From assembly GCA_965649115.1 (NCBI GenBank), contig CBFGJN010000061.1:1-10807 (forward strand): a DNA stretch of 10,807 bases, read 5' to 3'. The DNA comes from a candidate division WOR-3 bacterium (GTDB taxonomy: Bacteria; Hydrothermota; Hydrothermia; LBFQ01; DSFT01). This document shows positions 1 to 10,807 of this stretch, piece by piece; the first letter of the stretch is position 1; each line of letters begins with the position of its first letter. Under the pieces are notes generated by a model. The model saw only the letters and a program-made list of their open reading frames with translations, was not told the origin of the DNA and searched no databases. The position numbers and the translations under genes were made by a program.

Positions 1-146
1 ATAAAAGCCTTCGGCTTTAAAATACCCATTTTTTGCTTTGGGGGGCAGAGCCCCCCTAATAATCCCCCCAATAAATCAACAATTTCCTTAAAAATTTTAT
101 AAATTATTGATTATCAATCGCTTAACATCATTTATTGGACAAAGCA
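1..146 (+). mobile_element. MITE copy 1 (5' part beyond window edge)
   Basis: Hairpins at 4-18 and 40-56, palindrome at 100-124, right TIR ttattggacaaagca ending at 146. Confidence 0.85.
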
Positions 147-155
147 TCTTAATGG

Positions 156-331
156 TGCTTTGTCTAGTAATTCTGAAAATATAGATTATTTCTTATTTTG
201 CCCGCCCACCCTGTAATTAAGCCTTCGGCTTACAAATTCCCATATTTAGGCTATGGGGGGCTTCGCCCCCCTATAATCCCCCCATAAAATCTATAATTTC
301 TTCAAAGCTTTTATAAGTTTTGGACGAAGCA
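156..331 (+). mobile_element. MITE copy 2 (176 bp, palindrome deleted), flanked by tcttaatgg direct repeats
   Basis: Left TIR tgctttgtctagtaa, right end tggacgaagca. Identical 9-mers at 147-155 and 332-340. Confidence 0.88.
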
Positions 332-340
332 TCTTAATGG

Positions 341-568
341 TGCTTTGTCTAGTAATTCTAAAAATATGATTATTTCTTATTTTCCCCACCCACCCTGAAA
401 ATAAGGCTTCGCCTTAAAAGCTCTGCCCTCCATAAGTTTCCCCGATAAATTCAATAATTTCTTTGAGTTTTTAATAAGCTATTGATTATCAAGGACTTAA
501 CAAAAGGGCTTTAAAAATAAAGCTTCGCTTTATAAATGTCCAATTTTCGGTAAGGGGGCAAAGCCCTC
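341..568 (+). mobile_element. MITE copy 3 (341-~502, no right TIR) plus internal fragment (~513-568)
   Basis: Left TIR at 341, hairpin 402-416, palindrome 475-499. A second set of hairpin 1 (517-533) and hairpin 2 remnant follows. Confidence 0.78.
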
Positions 569-2981: not shown

Positions 2982-4189
2982 GCTGCTTCTATAATTGGTT
3001 CCTTATCTTTATCAACAACTTCTCTTGTTATTATAATTCTTCTTACACCCTTCATACTTGGAATTTTGTACATCCATTCCATAAGGATATCTTCAACAAT
3101 TGCTCTAAGTCCTCTTGCTCCAACTTTCTTACTATAAGAAATTTCCGCTATTCTTCTTATAGCATCATCAGTAAAAACAAGCTCTATGCCTTCCATTTCA
3201 AAAAGTTTTTGGTATTGCTTAATTAAAGCATTTTTTGGCTCTTTTAAAATTCTTTCAAGTGTTCCTATGTCAAGTGGGTCAAAGACAGCAATTACTGGTA
3301 ATCTTCCAACCATTTCTGGAATAATACCATATTTTATTAAGTCTTCTGGCTCAACATAATGTAATATCTGACTATCTGTAATTTTATTTAAATTTGCCAT
3401 AAATCCAATTTGTTTTTTCCCAAGTCTTGACTTTATAATTTCAGCAAGTCCTTCAAATGAACCTCCCATCATAAATAAAATGTTAGTTGTATCAAGTTGA
3501 ATGTAGCTTTGTTCAGGATGTTTCCTTCCTCCTTGTGGAGGGATATTTGCAATTGTCCCTTCAACAATTTTTAGTAATGCTTGTTGAACACCTTCACCAC
3601 CAACATCTCTTGTAATTGATGGATTATCACTTTTTCTTGAAAGTTTATCAAATTCATCAAGATAAACAATTCCTATTTCTGCCATTTTTAGATTATAATT
3701 AGCATTTTGAACAAGCCTTAAAAGAACATTTTCTACATCTTCTCCAACATAACCTGCTTCTGTTAATGGTGTTGCATCATAGATAGCAAATGGAACTTTT
3801 AATAGTTTTGAAAGTGTTTTTGCCATAAGTGTTTTCCCAACACCTGTAGGACCAATCATAAGGATATTTGACTTTTCAATTTCAACATCTTTAAATTTGT
3901 TTTTAAATTTAATTCGTTTATAATGATTATAAACAGCTACTGAAATAATTTTTTTTGCCTTTTCTTGGCCAATTATATACTCGTCTAAGAATGCTTTTAT
4001 TTCAGATGGTTTAGGCAGATTATAATTCATTTCTTCAAATTCAAGTTCCTCATCATTAATAATTTCATAAGCAAGTTCTATACAATCTCTACAAATATAA
4101 GCAAAATTTCCACCTACTAATTTTCCAACTTCTTTTTCACTCCTACCACAAAAGGAGCATTTCAAATCAGAAAATTTTCTTTTATTCAT
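2978..4189 (-). CDS. clpX: ATP-dependent Clp protease ATP-binding subunit ClpX
   Basis: C4 zinc-binding domain (CSFCG...CRDC), Walker A GPTGVGKT, GYVGEDVE pore loop, Walker B VYLDE, RDVGGEGVQQALLK, RKH and IGF loops. The ATG at 4189 is preferred over the TTG at 4195. Confidence 0.98.
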   Translation of the reverse strand: MNKRKFSDLKCSFCGRSEKEVGKLVGGNFAYICRDCIELAYEIINDEELEFEEMNYNLPKPSEIKAFLDEYIIGQEKAKKIISVAVYNHYKRIKFKNKFKDVEIEKSNILMIGPTGVGKTLMAKTLSKLLKVPFAIYDATPLTEAGYVGEDVENVLLRLVQNANYNLKMAEIGIVYLDEFDKLSRKSDNPSITRDVGGEGVQQALLKIVEGTIANIPPQGGRKHPEQSYIQLDTTNILFMMGGSFEGLAEIIKSRLGKKQIGFMANLNKITDSQILHYVEPEDLIKYGIIPEMVGRLPVIAVFDPLDIGTLERILKEPKNALIKQYQKLFEMEGIELVFTDDAIRRIAEISYSKKVGARGLRAIVEDILMEWMYKIPSMKGVRRIIITREVVDKDKEPIIEAA

Positions 4190-4196
4190 CTTCAAA

Positions 4197-4202
4197 ATTT
4201 TA
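4197..4202 (-). promoter_or_regulatory. Putative -10 box (TAAAAT) 7 nt upstream of the clpX ATG
   Basis: Minus strand reads gcttTAAAATtttgaagATG. The same motif precedes three other operon-first genes. Confidence 0.55.
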
Positions 4203-4216
4203 AAGCATAAATTTAT

Positions 4217-4397
4217 TGCTATGTCTAGTAATTCTGAAATTATTTATTTTTCTTATTTTTCCCTTCCACGCTGAAATTAAGCCTTCGGCTTATAAATCTT
4301 CGCCCCCCATTAAAACCTCCCTTAAATAAATAATTATAATAAAATTTTTATAAGTCCTTGATAATCAATTGCTTAACACTATTTACTGGACAAAGCA
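4217..4397 (+). mobile_element. MITE copy 4 (181 bp), flanked by taaatttat direct repeats
   Basis: TIRs tgctatgtctagtaa / ttactggacaaagca. 9-mers at 4208-4216 and 4398-4406. A TIR-end remnant aaagca lies at 4202-4207. Confidence 0.88.
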
Positions 4398-4406
4398 TAA
4401 ATTTAT

Positions 4407-4574
4407 TGCTTTGTCTGGCAATTCTGAAAGTATTTATTTTTCCCACCCGCCCTAAGATTAAGGCTTCGCCTTAAAGCTATGCCCCCCATCAACCCCCCTA
4501 AAATCAATAATTTTCTTAAAAGTTTTATAAGTCATTGATAATCAATAACTTAACGCTATCTACTAGACAAAGCA
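4407..4574 (+). mobile_element. MITE copy 5 (168 bp, internal deletions)
   Basis: TIRs tgctttgtctggcaa / ctactagacaaagca, hairpin 4458-4474, palindrome 4528-4552. Confidence 0.87.
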
Positions 4575-4583
4575 TTATAGATT

Positions 4584-4789
4584 TGGTGTCTCCAATAATT
4601 CTAGAAACATATATTTTTCTATATTTTGCCCACCCACTCTGTATTCAAGCGGACGGCTTTAAAAGAACCCCATCTTATGCCTTGGGGGGCTTTGTCCCCC
4701 AATAATTCTCCCGTTAAATCAACAATTTTCTTAAAACTTCTATAAGTTATTGATAATCAAGGACTTATCATCATTTATTGGACAAAGCA
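4584..4789 (+). mobile_element. MITE copy 6 (206 bp), flanked by ttatagatt direct repeats
   Basis: Variant left end tggtgtctccaataa, right TIR ttattggacaaagca. 9-mers at 4575-4583 and 4790-4798. Confidence 0.88.
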
Positions 4790-4798
4790 TTATAGATT

Positions 4799-4968
4799 TG
4801 GTGTGTCCAGTAATTCTAAAATCATTTATTTTTCTTTATTTTTCCACCCACCCTATATTCAAGACTTAGCCTTTAAAATTCCCATTTTTCGGCATTGTGG
4901 AGCTATGCCCCCATAATTCCCCCCATTAAGTCAATAATTTCATTTAACATTAATTACTGGACAAAGCA
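4799..4968 (+). mobile_element. MITE copy 7 (170 bp, palindrome deleted)
   Basis: Ends tggtgtgtccagtaa / ttactggacaaagca, with degenerate hairpins. Confidence 0.85.
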
Positions 4969-5017
4969 TTTTTTATACCTCGGGGGCGATACTCCTATAA
5001 ATTCAGTAGTTTTAAGT

Positions 5018-5221
5018 TGCTTTGTCTAGTAATTCTAAAAACATATATTTTTCTTATTTTTCCCACCCACCCTATGAATAAGCCTTCGGCTTATAAATAC
5101 CCCATCTTTTGCTGTGGGGGACTTCGCCCCCCTACAATTCCCCCGAAAAATAAATAATTTCCTTGAAAATTTTATAAGTTATTGAAAATCAAGAACTTAA
5201 CACCATTTATTGGACAAAGCA
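5018..5221 (+). mobile_element. MITE copy 8 (204 bp, full length) with 9-bp TSD gttttaagt
   Basis: TIRs tgctttgtctagtaa / ttattggacaaagca. gttttaagt at 5009-5017 and 5222-5230. Confidence 0.92.
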
Positions 5222-5240
5222 GTTTTAAGTAGATTTTTAT

Positions 5241-5300
5241 CAGAAAACATTTATTTTTCCTATTTTTTCCACTCGCCCTGAATTCAAGCCTTTGGGTTAT
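5241..5300 (+). repeat. Degenerate MITE left-arm fragment
   Basis: gaaaacatttatttttcctattttttccactcgccctgaattcaagcctttgggtt aligns with the element's left arm and hairpin 1. No TIR. Confidence 0.7.
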
Positions 5301-5756: not shown

Positions 5757-5763
5757 AAATAAA

Positions 5764-5769
5764 ATTTTA
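5764..5769 (-). promoter_or_regulatory. Putative -10 box (TAAAAT) 7 nt upstream of the HEPN-like gene ATG
   Basis: Minus strand reads ccttTAAAATtttatttATG. Confidence 0.55.
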
Positions 5770-5791
5770 AAGGATGATAAATTCAATTAAT

Positions 5792-5995
5792 TGGTGTGTC
5801 CAAAAATTCTGAAAATATATATTTTTCTATATTTTGCCCACCCACCCTAAAATTAAGGCTTCGCCTTTAAAATTCCCATTTTTCGGCTTTGGGGGGCTTC
5901 GCCCCCCATCAACCCCCCATAAAAACTATAATTTTCTTAAAATTTTTATAAATCCTTGATAATCAATAACTTAACATTATTTACTAGACACAGCA
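5792..5995 (+). mobile_element. MITE copy 9 (204 bp, full length, no evident TSD)
   Basis: Ends tggtgtgtccaaaaa / ttactagacacagca, with both hairpins and the palindrome (5949-5973) intact. Flanks tcaattaat and aaatataat differ. Confidence 0.88.
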
Positions 5996-6012
5996 AAATA
6001 TAATTACTTTTT

Positions 6013-6885
6013 TTAAAACTTTGCAATTGAAAATGAAAATAAACTAATTAAACTTGCTTCAATTGAAGCATATCTTTTTATTAAATCTTCAATTTCAAGA
6101 GAATGTTTAAGAATTTTATAGTGAATTTCATTTGAGCTTTCAATATATTTCTTCTTATAATAAAATCTAAAAACTCTTAAAAAATTCATAAAATCCCTTG
6201 AATCTTGAATAGTTTTTGAAATTTCTAAAACCTCTTTAACACTTCTTATTTCATTTAATATATTTAGCCAATCATTTATTGGATAATTATTTAATTGCTT
6301 TGCTATGCCAATTGAACCTTCTGAAATTTCATAAATCAATTTTATATTGTAATTCCAATTGTATTCATAACTTGAAAATTCTTCAAAACTTAAACATTTA
6401 AAAGAAATTTTTAAAGTTCTTGAAAGAATTGTAGGAAGAATTTTTAAATAGTTTGAAGTTATTAAAATGAATGTTGTTCTCTTTTGGTATTCTTCAAGAA
6501 TTTTTAAAAGTGAATTTTGGGCTTCAATTGTAAGCATATCCGCATCCATTATTATTACAATTCTTTTTTTTGCATAAATTGGTGGTTTTTGTAATTCAAT
6601 TTTTAAATTTCTAATTTGTTCTATGGAGATATTTTTTAGATTATCAAAATTTTCTGGTCTTGGGCCATAAGGCTTTAATTCACCAACACTAATAAAAATA
6701 ATGTCAGGATGATTCAATTTATAAATTTTTTCTTCTTGTTTTGGATTACATAAAGAACAAAAATATAGGGCAGTTGTCGATTTACCAATACCAAATTGAC
6801 CATAAAATAATAAGGGAGGAACATTTTCAAATTTTGAAATGGAAATTAAATGTTTTAAAATATCTTTATGGCCGATGATGTTCAT
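6013..6885 (-). CDS. holB: DNA polymerase III subunit delta' (clamp loader)
   Basis: NIIGH start, LLFYGQFGIGKST, HPD, ISIEQIR.L, IIMDADMLTIEAQNSLLKILEE and ILPTILSR motifs. The 290-aa length fits HolB rather than DnaX. Confidence 0.88.
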   Translation of the reverse strand: MNIIGHKDILKHLISISKFENVPPLLFYGQFGIGKSTTALYFCSLCNPKQEEKIYKLNHPDIIFISVGELKPYGPRPENFDNLKNISIEQIRNLKIELQKPPIYAKKRIVIIMDADMLTIEAQNSLLKILEEYQKRTTFILITSNYLKILPTILSRTLKISFKCLSFEEFSSYEYNWNYNIKLIYEISEGSIGIAKQLNNYPINDWLNILNEIRSVKEVLEISKTIQDSRDFMNFLRVFRFYYKKKYIESSNEIHYKILKHSLEIEDLIKRYASIEASLISLFSFSIAKF

Positions 6886-6903: not shown

Positions 6904-7280
6904 TGCTTTGTCTAGCAATTCTAATGCTGTGTCTAGTAATTCTGAAAATATAATCATTTGTATATTTTTCCCACCCACCCTATATTCAAGGCTTCGCCTT
7001 TAAAATACCCTATCTTATGCTTTGGGGGGCTTCGCCCCCCTTAAATTCCCCCATTATTTCAAGCATTTTAATGAATTTTTAATAAGTTATTGACTATCAA
7101 ACACTTAACATTATTTACTAGACAAAGCACAATTCTAAAAATATATATTTTTCTTATTTTGCCCACCCACCCTAAATATAAGCCTTCGGCTTTAAAAACC
7201 CCAACTTTTGCCATCAGGGGGCTCTGCCCCCCTTAAATACCCCATTAAGTCAGTAGTTTCATCATTTATTGGACAAAGCA
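6904..7280 (+). mobile_element. MITE copy 10 (6904-6924 + 7139-7280), interrupted by copy 11
   Basis: The left TIR starts at 6904, the body resumes after the duplicated caattctaa, and the right TIR ends at 7280. Confidence 0.87.
6925..7129 (+). mobile_element. MITE copy 11 (205 bp, full length), nested in copy 10 with TSD caattctaa
   Basis: TIRs tgctgtgtctagtaa / ttactagacaaagca (14/15 complementary). caattctaa at 6916-6924 and 7130-7138. Confidence 0.92.
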
Positions 7281-7312
7281 AGACAAAAATAAGAGTATAA
7301 TTTTTAGTCCTT

Positions 7313-7318
7313 TAAAAT
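7313..7318 (+). promoter_or_regulatory. Putative -10 box (TAAAAT) 6 nt upstream of the efp ATG
   Basis: Plus strand reads ccttTAAAATtttcatATG. A TATAAT at 7296-7301 is an alternative. Confidence 0.5.
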
Positions 7319-7324
7319 TTTCAT

Positions 7325-7885: not shown

Positions 7886-8340
7886 GATTTGAAGATATTT
7901 TAAAAATTATAGAAATTTTTGAGAAAAGCAACTTAACTGAGCTTGAAATAAAAATTGATGAGCCTAAATTTAAAATAAAGCTTTCAAAAAATAATCAATT
8001 TCAAACACAAGTTGTTCAAATTCCACAAATTCAAAATTTTCAACCAATTCAAAAGGAAGAAGTTATTAAAGAAACAAAAGAAGAAAAGAAAGAAAACATT
8101 CATATTATTAAATCTCCACTTGTAGGGACATTTTATAGAGCACCTTCACCAGGTGCTGAACCATTTGTTAAAGAAGGTGATTTTGTTAAGAAAGGACAAG
8201 TTTTATGTATTATTGAAGCGATGAAAGTTATGAATGAAATTGAAAGTGATGTTGATGGTATCGTTGAAAGGATTCTTGTTGAAAATGGAAAACCTGTTGA
8301 ATATGGTCAAGAACTATTTATTATTAGGTTAAGTTCTTGA
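7882..8340 (+). CDS. accB: Acetyl-CoA carboxylase biotin carboxyl carrier protein
   Basis: [21 protein letters not shown] and the biotinylation motif [15 protein letters not shown] overlap with efp. Confidence 0.97.
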
Positions 8341-9848
8341 TTATCTTTGCTTTAATTTTAGTTCTCATCTTAAATTTAATTTTAGTAAAGCCTTTGTTTT
8401 CAAAAATTTTAAGAGCACTTGCTATATTCATTTTAATTTTAATGGTTTTAAATCCAAAAATAACAACCTACGAATATAAAAAAGAAAAAATTGCTATTGT
8501 ATTTGATTTAACAAAAAGTTCAAAGTGGCTTTTGGAATTTTATAAAAGTTTAGATACAAAAAATTTTGATAAATATGAACTTGGCGATAGTATTTACAAA
8601 TTTAAAAATTTTGAATTTAAATACAATATCACGAATTTAAATGCTTTAAGCTATCTTAAAAATTATGATAAAATCATTTATGTTGGTGATGGGTGGCATA
8701 ACTATCCATCTGAAATTGATTATAATGGTTTTTTTTCACCGATTTATGTAATTTATCCAAATGTAAAAGCAAGTGAAATATCAATAAAAAATTATATTTA
8801 TCCTAAGTTTGTTGAACCAAATGAAATTTTTCAAACTTATCTTGAAGTTTTTTCAAATAAAGATACAACAATAAATTTTCAAATTAAACTTGATACAATC
8901 ATTCAAAAGAATTTAAATTTATCAAAAGGTATAAATTCATTTACCTTTATTCTAAAAGCACCAAGTCTTGATGGAAATTATAAAATAAATTTGAAAATAT
9001 CAAATAAATTAAGACAATATAGTTTAAATGTAAAAAGTCCTTCAAAAAATGTTCTAATTAATGTTTATAAAATTACACCTGAAATTGGCCTATTAAATAG
9101 ACTTCTTAAAGATTTAGGATATAATGTTGTTTTAAATTTAAAAAATGAAAAAATTAGTGGAAATTTTGAATTAACAATTGGATATGGAAAGGATAATGGG
9201 GAAGATTTAGTTTTTATTGAGGGCAAGAAAAAATTTGTTAATTTTAGGGGCATTGATAGTGTTGTTGATTTTAAGTTAGATGAATTTATTTTAAATCCTA
9301 TTAGTGGAATTTATAATAATAGAGTTTTTGTTCTAACTAATGAGCTTTGGAAAATTGGAAGATTTGATTTTTTAGAGTATAAAAATTTATTATTGCCAAC
9401 CATAAACACTGCCTTAAATTTAAAACCAAGAATAGATATTGATTATCATGTCGTTTTCAATAAGGCATATTTAAAAGTTAGTTCAAATAATCCAAATGTT
9501 AAATTTTATTTAAATGACAAAGAAATCCCAAATTATAATGTACTTAAAATTCTTAAACCTGAAACGTTAAATTTAAAAGCGTTTTTAAATGCAAGAAAAA
9601 TTTATGAGAATAAAATTACTTTAATGCCTGATACAATTGGTTTTGAGAATGAAGAAGGAATAGATAGTTTAACACTTGCTAATCTCGTTAATAAAACAGG
9701 TGGAAAATTTATAAAAAGCCCAAATGAAATTAAATCTGAAAAAATTAAAATTCAAAAAGAAATTTTTAATAATTTATTTTTTGGATTTTTGGTTATTTTT
9801 TTAATTTTAATTGATTTTGTATTAAGAAGATTTTTCGGTTTCAGATAG
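8337..9848 (+). CDS. Membrane-anchored protein with degenerate vWA-like domain
   Basis: Two N-terminal hydrophobic helices, MIDAS-like [15 protein letters not shown], a beta-rich middle region, [12 protein letters not shown] and a C-terminal TM helix ending [14 protein letters not shown] start overlaps the accB stop. Confidence 0.6.
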
Positions 9849-10346: not shown

Positions 10347-10353
10347 AGTGAAA

Positions 10354-10359
10354 ATTTTA
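10354..10359 (-). promoter_or_regulatory. Putative -10 box (TAAAAT) 7 nt upstream of the hpt ATG
   Basis: Minus strand reads ccctTAAAATtttcactATG. Confidence 0.55.
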
Positions 10360-10386
10360 AGGGTAGTTTTACTTTAAAATTGGCAA

Positions 10387-10487
10387 GGGGGCTTCGTCCC
10401 CCACTGCCGAAAAATGGGTATTTATAAAGCAAAGCTTTATTTTCAGGGCGGGTGGGGAAAATATAGTAAAATAAATAATTTTAGAAT
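10387..10487 (-). repeat. MITE fragment in reverse orientation, truncated by copy 12
   Basis: Hairpin 2 remnant, hairpin 1 at 10424-10440, agggcgggtgggg and the left arm, which stops at ttttagaat. Confidence 0.78.
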
Positions 10488-10692
10488 TGCTTTGTCTAAT
10501 AAATAGTGTTAAGTGATTGATTATCAATAGTTTATGAAAATTATGCTGAAATTATTGATTTTTTGGGGGGAATTAAAGGGGGGCGGAGCCCCCCGAGGCA
10601 TAAAAATGGGTTTTTTAAAGCCAAAGGCTTAATAGCAGGGTGGGTGGGAAAAATAAGAAATAATGATATTTTCAGAATTATTAGACAAAGCA
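10488..10692 (-). mobile_element. MITE copy 12 (205 bp, full length, reverse orientation)
   Basis: Ends tgctttgtctaataa / ttattagacaaagca form a perfect 15-bp inverted repeat. All internal motifs are present in reverse order. Confidence 0.9.
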
Positions 10693-10701
10693 TAATTTAC
10701 T

Positions 10702-10807
10702 TGCTTTGTCCAATAATTATTGTTAAGCGATTGATAATCAATAATTTATAAAATTTTTAAGGAAATTGTTGATTTATTGGGGGGATTATTAGGGGGGCTT
10801 CGCCCCC
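10702..10807 (-). mobile_element. MITE copy 13 (reverse orientation, truncated by window edge)
   Basis: TIR tgctttgtccaataa lies exactly 9 bp (taatttact) from copy 12. Palindrome at 10724-10748. Confidence 0.85.

Follow-up and report, generated by a model that had tools for sequence, protein, structure and literature searches.

Head-to-tail stacks of a miniature element with IS903-type ends at probable promoter motifs in the genome of a candidate division WOR-3 bacterium

Elements of the IS903 group (IS5 family), like IS903 and IS903B, are characterized by inverted ends of the GCTTTGT...AATAAAT type and by 9-bp target duplications, seen in IS903B as a 9-bp direct repeat (PMC10569121). The published relatives most similar to the repeat treated here are MITEAba12 and ISAba12, in which a MITE (miniature inverted-repeat transposable element) has IS903-type ends. 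In the available sections of PMC6382973, MITEAba12 is described as non-coding, AT-rich, 113 bp long, with 9-bp duplications, intact in 40% of its copies and with no target pattern beyond AT-richness. In this work, a repeat with ends and duplications of the same kind was studied in a stretch of 10,807 nucleotides (hereafter the window), which is an entire contig (C61) of a candidate division WOR-3 genome (G000), and copies of which, of ~205 bp, are present in every intergenic region of the window. It is a non-coding MITE with IS903-like ends, arranged in promoter-anchored stacks. Unlike MITEAba12, it is 205 bp long, contains GC-rich hairpins and occupies 5% of the genome with its roughly 700 copies; it is anchored to promoters, and no transposase was found for it.

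The genome is a short-read draft of 1.85 Mb in 99 contigs, 94.5% complete, with 27.6% G+C, and was compared with four congeners (G001, G002, G003, and G004). The repeat begins with TGCTTTGTCTAGTAATTCT and finishes with ATTTAYTRGACAAAGCA, and its copies are short, non-coding and widely dispersed. A profile of 205 model positions was built from nine copies of the window (nhmmer), and its search of the draft genome gave 700 matches (695 after merging) on 99 contigs, which correspond to 5.2% of the genome. The terminal inverted repeats (TIRs), that is, TGCTTTGTCYARTAAT at the left end and its complement at the right, are found in all nine seed copies, and both tips are kept in 269 copies genome-wide. 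An Rfam scan of the window showed no match for the repeat. Each copy contains two GC-rich hairpins with TTCG-type loops, AAGCCTTCGGCTT and GGGGGGCTTCGCCCCCC (e.g., window 215-232 and 253-271), in which a stem pair is swapped among some copies (GCC/GGC versus GGC/GCC), and a palindrome, TTGATAATCAA, is located close to the right end.

The repeat makes 9-bp target-site duplications. In detail, among 112 solitary copies, which lack a junction at both ends, 48 are bordered by perfect 9-bp duplications and 56 by 9-mers with at most one mismatch, and when the right flank was shifted by 12 nt as a control, none of 217 comparisons gave two mismatches or fewer. After the rescue of tips, perfect flanks were found in 104 copies. 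It follows from the flanks of the solitary copies that each pair of spacers within the window represents the duplication made by the copy it encloses (B, D, F, and H; table 1).

The same length governs the junctions between neighboring copies. Genome-wide, 105 of the 135 distances of up to 60 nt from a right tip to the next left tip are exactly 9 nt. When oriented calls and rescued tips were used, the head-to-tail junctions within 100 nt measured 9 bp in 104 of 126 cases, 8 bp in nine and 10 bp in none. This excess lies far beyond chance, and it is the genome-wide peak that an initial annotation of the window, made from its sequence, had anticipated. Junctions between tips of other orientation are found only three times in the whole genome. 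Similarly, in a 67-kb sample of G002, five of seven gaps are 9 bp long, 19 of 20 close neighbors are co-oriented, and 12 of 26 full copies have flanks that differ at one position or none.

Within the window, the spacers are bounded on the left by ...GACAAAGCA and on the right by TGCTTTGTC... or TGGTGTGTC..., and they measure 9 bp in all six junctions of intact facing tips (A/B, B/C, D/E, E/F, F/G, and N/O). The seven spacers listed in the initial annotation, that is, the pairs tcttaatgg, taaatttat and ttatagatt and the single taatttact, all exist, each between a right and a left tip, and their pairing is correct, although a fourth pair, GTTTTAAGT around copy H, had been overlooked. The statement that every junction is exactly 9 bp holds for the intact facing tips but not beyond them: copies G and H are separated by 49 nt (4969-5017), copy K is nested, and M, which lacks a left tip, abuts N (10487/10488). 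Assembled contigs from 18 public runs, as opposed to reads, were available, and four of these were compared with the window. Independent contigs (X1 record 4 and X5 record 19) span the junctions D/E and E/F without a single difference. The many apparent joints in this comparison were rejected as cross-mapping of the repeat, with sides of <35 nt, and they allow no claim for an empty-site allele or a circle junction.

The position of the stacks follows a feature of the host. Listing the flanks around all 104 perfectly duplicated copies showed that a stack's first copy is preceded on its left, in nearly every case, by the right tip of another copy or by a motif in the context (CAT, 3-8 nt) GAAAATTTTAAAG, the CAT being a start codon of the opposite strand. 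The motif, AAAATTTTAAAG, is located within 80 nt upstream of 237 of the 475 left ends. Measured from the final G of the motif, left ends lie at 19 nt in 124 cases, at 18 nt in 46, at 11 nt in 30 and at 12 nt in 13; thus, the distances of 19, 18 or 11 nt account for 200 of the 237 motif-bearing left ends, and for 213 if 12 nt is added. Right ends showed no distance peak to the motif (38 of 360, scattered). In the G002 sample, 14 left ends are placed 18-20 nt and five are placed 11-13 nt from the motif. The 10 nt between motif and target hold no conserved sequence. The start codon was rejected as a ruler, since in both registers CAT lies anywhere between 0 and 11 nt from the motif. At the 19-nt sites, the two bases left of the target are T-rich and not YA, and the consensus WTTYA-N9-TRAAW, given for IS903 in a table of PMC2577343, is not evident on the left side. 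To the right of targets TG is frequent, but old element tips confound the count.

Allowing one mismatch, the motif has 1,448 instances on both strands, of which 406 are within 10 nt of a CAT. It includes TAAAAT a few bases ahead of the ATG and would most likely represent the -10 promoter element of genes with near-leaderless mRNAs, as judged from its sequence and position. As CTTTAAAATTTT, it is found 3-8 nt upstream of the ATG at about 400 gene starts (in the window at 4194-4205, 5761-5772, 7310-7321 on the minus strand, and 10351-10362), and the MITE is present at about half of the start-codon-adjacent motif promoters. Copy K adjoins the start of holB, upstream of which TATAAT takes the place of the usual motif.

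The clpX promoter offers a comparison between species. The aaagca at 4202-4207, which the initial annotation had taken for a remnant of a TIR, is instead the native end of the host promoter motif, as the orthologous clpX promoters without an element read aaagca (G001), aaagtc (G003) and aaagcc (G004). In G002 the promoter also reads aaagca and carries its own independent insertion at 19 nt, versus 11 nt for copy D in the window. These empty sites and the one independent insertion are all that is readable at orthologous loci, as the synteny of the DUF5618 gene differs in G002 and the G002 contig breaks within the clpX stack. We consider it likely that the main ruler for insertion is the host promoter motif and not the TIR. 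The fixed distance would then reflect targeting rather than the survival of insertions, and a peak sharp to one base is hard to obtain from selection.

Stacks were defined as copies chained through exact 9-bp junctions, and 86 of them were recognized, 69 with two copies, 16 with three and one with four. Among the 63 stacks with a left end on the first copy, 50 are anchored to the motif (39 at 18-20 nt and 11 at 10-13 nt). In the anchored group, 31 stacks have the duplication on the copy nearest the promoter (aa-, aaa, aab, aaab, aaaa and other patterns). Copies become older and shorter with distance from the motif: at stack positions 1, 2 and 3, the median best identity to a copy elsewhere is 0.963, 0.889 and 0.858, and the median length is 204, 152 and 146 nt, respectively. 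The copy at position 1 is younger than that at position 2 in 30 of 41 pairs (paired Wilcoxon, p = 2e-4). Growth thus takes place at the promoter-proximal end only. Stacks that face each other are tail-to-tail in 26 cases and head-to-head in two, as expected if each stack grows outward from one of two divergent promoters. The left tip is kept and the right tip lost in 206 copies genome-wide, and the reverse is seen in 91, a surplus that fits promoter-distal decay of the stacks.

Neighbors within a stack are not sisters. Their mean identity is 0.769, against 0.751 for all pairs, and the neighbor is the best match of either partner in only one of 71 adjacent pairs. Elsewhere in the genome, the best match of a copy has a median identity of 0.89, and 176 of 519 copies have a relative of at least 0.95. 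Much of the initial annotation agrees with these data: the bodies of the elements are divergent, adjacent copies are not closest relatives, the arrays grow by new insertions, each on the 9 bp abutting the tip of the previous copy, they extend in one direction and record the insertion order, and they are located in intergenic DNA.

Both ends of the window show such stacks at their promoters. Contig C81 overlaps positions 1-59 and supplies the promoter, ...AAAATTTTAAAGCA, followed by TCTTAATGG and the left end of copy A. The locus therefore reads promoter - t - A - t - B - t - C, and its three 9-mers are identical. The best identity elsewhere falls from 1.0 (A) to 0.92 (B) and 0.88 (C, truncated), a gradient which indicates that C was inserted first and A last. 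At the other end, contig C20 continues the sequence to a promoter, 10 nt, AGTAAATTA, copy O, AGTAAATTA, N and M. Copy O is placed 19 nt from the promoter motif and is the young copy of its stack.

Promoter-anchored, repeated insertion is probably the best explanation of the arrays. An IS903-like DDE transposase would cut the target with a 9-bp stagger, so that each insertion is accompanied by a 9-bp duplication. Insertion would be specific for site and orientation, with the left end 18-19 nt, or less often 11 nt, from the motif. The first insertion would leave an intact 9-mer on the promoter side, which the next insertion would reuse and duplicate again. The expected outcome is a head-to-tail series with 9-bp spacing: promoter - t - newest - t - older - t - oldest. 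Repeated use of the promoter-side 9-mer would account for the unrelated neighbors, for the record of insertion order and for the different 9-mer of each promoter. The spacers do differ between pairs, as the initial annotation had noticed, and the reason would be that each stack has its own promoter-side 9-mer.

Exceptions to this order may come from composite movement of stacks and from recombination between copies. The form a-X-b-Y-a, in which an outer duplication surrounds a dimer, is found in five of the 86 stacks, and stacks can thus move as composite units. Only two of the 86 contain a copy cleanly inserted at an internal TIR-TIR junction (copy F in the window and one copy on contig C80). 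Copy F is either an insertion into an internal junction or the recombination product of two stacks, and both internal cases could have arisen in the latter way, from which x-D-x-E-y-F-y-G is derivable. The unmatched flanks of half of the solitary copies are indirect evidence for recombination between copies. Two apparent "abb" cases proved to be register shifts of 1 nt and not internal insertions.

Several observations weigh against this explanation. The first copy lacks matching flanks in 19 of the 50 anchored stacks, and the clpX stack (x x y y z) has no age gradient and contains F at an internal junction. Stack sizes are overdispersed relative to a Poisson distribution (17 stacks of three versus 6.7 expected), a comparison confounded by promoter heterogeneity and contig breaks. 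Such breaks are common, with 82 of the 198 contig ends falling within the repeat, so that long stacks are under-sampled. In stacks with the promoter-proximal copy at 18 nt, the gap to the second left tip is 9 nt in ten cases and 10 nt in none, while a promoter ruler with independent choice of register (19 nt in about 73%) predicts a 10-nt gap in about 73% of cases. Selection against insertions elsewhere and targeting are inseparable by sequence alone. Finally, neither a transposase nor a full-length element was found in this genome and its four congeners, and we infer the driving enzyme from the ends alone.

The mover would be an IS903-like DDE transposase, either absent from the genome or unassembled. 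In a by-eye comparison with the right tip in the window, 14 of 18 positions equal those of the inverted repeat of IS903B (PMC10569121). Of the Pfam and NCBIfam models for a DDE_Tnp_1-type transposase, PF01609, PF13737 and NF033580 had no matches in the WOR-3 genome, and PF01609 and NF033580 had none in G001-G004. In more distant relatives, matches to PF01609 were rejected, as they belong to unrelated GC-rich sequence without matching tips. No pair of tips 0.7-6 kb apart encloses a transposase, and pairs with matching flanks at 0.3-6 kb represent only stacks and one copy split by unrelated genes over ~1 kb (C11:31359-32784). A self-BLAST for long multi-copy repeats returned methyltransferase paralogues and no insertion sequence. 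These negative results are limited by a draft of 94.5% completeness, in which elements of this kind often fail to assemble, and they do not establish absence.

The initial annotation had proposed that new copies target the 9 bp abutting a resident element, with IS30 and IS911 as precedents. As the main cause, this would mean that the transposase recognizes a resident inverted repeat and that arrays seed and extend themselves at any location of a copy. Targeting of inverted repeats by IS30 and IS911 is in print, and according to the available text of PMC9333248 it produces left-right junctions with a fixed short spacer and strict orientation, exclusively IRL-IRR (left to right inverted repeat) in the case of IS30. 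The locked register of the present junctions, with no gap of 10 nt, resembles this. After a copy at 19 nt the gap is 9 nt in 35 cases and 8 nt in two, and 11 stacks stand at the minority register of 11 nt, against one 19-nt insertion nested in a resident at ~10 nt. In addition, AAAGCA, the last six bases of the element, follows the motif in 16 of the 30 sites at 11 nt, compared with 23 of the 124 sites at 19 nt (p = 3e-4) and 67 of the 406 promoter motifs (p = 1e-5). The internal insertions F and that on C80 point the same way, but they are only two cases, for which recombination of two stacks also suffices. On the contrary, solitary copies with no resident neighbor already have the fixed distance and orientation to the motif, and growth is polar, on the promoter side only. 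Stack heads are rarer among copies away from the motif (13 of 138) than beside it (50 of 228; p = 0.0025), and in most of the 13 the motif is degenerate or a further copy lies upstream. The likeness to IS30 and IS911 is one of geometry, as a resident repeat is not by itself a sufficient target here, independently of the host sequence. Both belong to the copy-out-paste-in elements, and their junctions, with spacers of 2-3 bp, are highly reactive intermediates (PMC9333248, as far as its text was available), whereas the junctions described here are stable, persist next to decayed copies, have the 9-bp duplication as spacer and are anchored mainly to the promoter motif. No -10-like hexamer was seen by eye 17 nt from TGGACA, which would give a promoter across the R-9bp-L junction as in IS911 and IS30 circles. 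Resident tips as the main cause are thus unlikely, and of the earlier proposal there remain the register locked to the tip and the enrichment of AAAGCA at the abutting register.

The overdispersed stack sizes and the locked register do allow some pull from a resident copy. A secondary attraction by the tip of the element itself (AAAGCA plus 9) is hinted at rather than demonstrated. It is conceivable, though doubtful, that two target rules coexist, namely the promoter-motif ruler (18-19 nt, one orientation) and recognition of the six-base tip AAAGCA before the 9-bp target. A dual target specificity is documented for IS911 in the accessible part of PMC9333248. If the tip rule were true, promoters ending in AAAGCA would be targeted at 11 nt and later insertions would fall in register with the resident copy. 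Under both rules, stacks would be self-propagating, gene-sparing landing pads that record transposition bursts at hundreds of promoters.

There are two further explanations of the arrays. Tandem duplication, by unequal crossing-over or slippage between the 9-bp flanks, would give t-X-t-X-t and then divergence, and would automatically yield head-to-tail order and identical spacers; all-equal patterns (aaa, aaaa) do exist. It is extremely improbable, as neighbors are hardly closer to each other than the background and many copies have a relative of at least 95% elsewhere (above), perfect 9-mers next to bodies with ~25% divergence are unexpected from old duplications, and neither the age gradient nor the length gradient is predicted. 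Junctions could otherwise be relics of transposition intermediates, with circles or dimers carrying 9 bp of donor flank recombining, or dimers spreading as composite units. Four a-X-b-Y-a dimers with a different inner spacer (C1:59266, C4:18773, C64:8001, and C34:8712) are in favor of this, together with some inner 9-mers shared by two loci that hold related copies, for example GTAGAAAAT (C27 and C39). Nevertheless, composite movement covers a minority of the stacks and presupposes a pre-formed dimer, many recurring 9-mers are overlaps of contig ends of one locus, and IS903-type elements are not among the copy-out-paste-in families listed in the available text of PMC9333248. As a general origin of the junctions we regard such relics as very improbable. 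A circle recombining with a resident copy was set aside as the source of a-X-b-Y-a, since composite movement explains the examples equally well.

The features of the window are collected in table 1. Its genes encode a TPR protein, an HflX-type GTPase, ClpX, a DUF5618 protein, the delta' subunit of DNA polymerase III, EF-P, a biotin carboxyl carrier, a 503-aa protein and a phosphoribosyltransferase; the open reading frame (ORF) of the 503-aa protein (8337-9848, downstream of accB) had no Pfam match at E <= 1e-5. Element debris extends from copy C to about 575, and a decayed copy follows H at 5240-5300. Unique sequence behind copy J (5996-6094) is shared with C27:23278-23376, where it stands behind a different copy, which is either a strain-level rearrangement or variation at the repeat, or an assembly fork. 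Elsewhere in the genome (C11:31359-32784), a copy flanked by the perfect duplication TATATCTTT is interrupted by ~1 kb containing an unassigned 246-aa ORF, a second promoter motif and another copy of the repeat, possibly a captured gene or a composite.

Table 1. Copies of the repeat, 9-bp spacers and promoter motifs in the window
Feature	Position	Strand	Remarks
Copy A, right-hand part	1..146	+	model positions 64-205; left part on contig C81; 100% identity to copies elsewhere; youngest of stack
Spacer TCTTAATGG	147..155	+	9-bp target copy; right flank of A, left flank of B
Copy B, 176 bp	156..331	+	internal deletion near right end; perfect 9-bp duplication; best identity elsewhere 0.92
Spacer TCTTAATGG, third copy of target 9-mer	332..340	+	
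Copy C	341..502	+	oldest of stack; model positions 1-186; right end lost; best identity elsewhere 0.88
Promoter-like motif AAAATTTTAAAG plus CA, upstream of clpX	4194..4207	+	clpX start codon on minus strand, 4187-4189; conserved at element-free orthologous promoters of G001, G003 and G004
Spacer TAAATTTAT, left flank of D	4208..4216	+	motif G to left end of D, 11 nt
Copy D, promoter-proximal	4217..4397	+	perfect 9-bp duplication
Spacer TAAATTTAT, second copy	4398..4406	+	
Copy E	4407..4574	+	flanks unlike: TAAATTTAT / TTATAGATT
Spacer TTATAGATT, left flank of F	4575..4583	+	
Copy F, full length	4584..4789	+	perfect 9-bp duplication
Spacer TTATAGATT, second copy	4790..4798	+	
Copy G	4799..4968	+	
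Copy H	5018-5221	+	perfect duplication GTTTTAAGT at 5009-5017 and 5222-5230
Promoter motif of DUF5618 gene	5761-5772	+	followed by 19 nt to solitary copy J
Solitary copy J	5792-5995	+	19 nt from motif
Older copy split by nested K	6904..7280	+	tip 6904-6915, body 7139-7280
Copy K	6925-7129	+	nested 12 nt inside left tip of older copy; duplication CAATTCTAA at 6916-6924 and 7130-7138
Stack O-N-M	10386..10807	-	O 10702-10807 (continues on C20), spacer 10693-10701, N 10488-10692, truncated M 10386-10487

Parts of this behavior are known from other elements. Integration upstream of promoters is described for Mutator-like transposases (TnGBS, ISKra4 group), which belong to an unrelated superfamily, and the available text of PMC3942029 describes no stacks of non-autonomous copies with a spacer of duplication length. 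The P element of Drosophila forms head-to-tail dimers with one duplication length (8 nt) at the junction through double insertion at preferred sites, according to the accessible part of McGurk & Barbash 2018 (PMC5932611). It is eukaryotic, autonomous and mostly found as dimers, whereas the stacks of the WOR-3 genome are bacterial and non-autonomous, reach four or more copies and have a readable age order. IS1202-family elements insert in a fixed orientation and at a fixed distance (5 bp) from the dif/pdif site bound by a host protein, as stated in the portion of PMC10132070 that was available; they differ from the present repeat in family, target (XerC site) and duplication length. Promoter-anchored stacking is not mentioned in the available sections of PMC2577343 or PMC6382973, and no bacterial MITE described as promoter-anchored stacks was found in open-access text.

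The repeat would bring the safe-haven strategy of inserting upstream of promoters to a second family, in which an IS903-type element appears at ~700 copies in 1.85 Mb without hitting genes. The stacks break short-read assemblies, move as composites and probably drive rearrangements. As they are ordered, with the newest copy beside the promoter, bursts of transposition can be placed in order and compared between strains.

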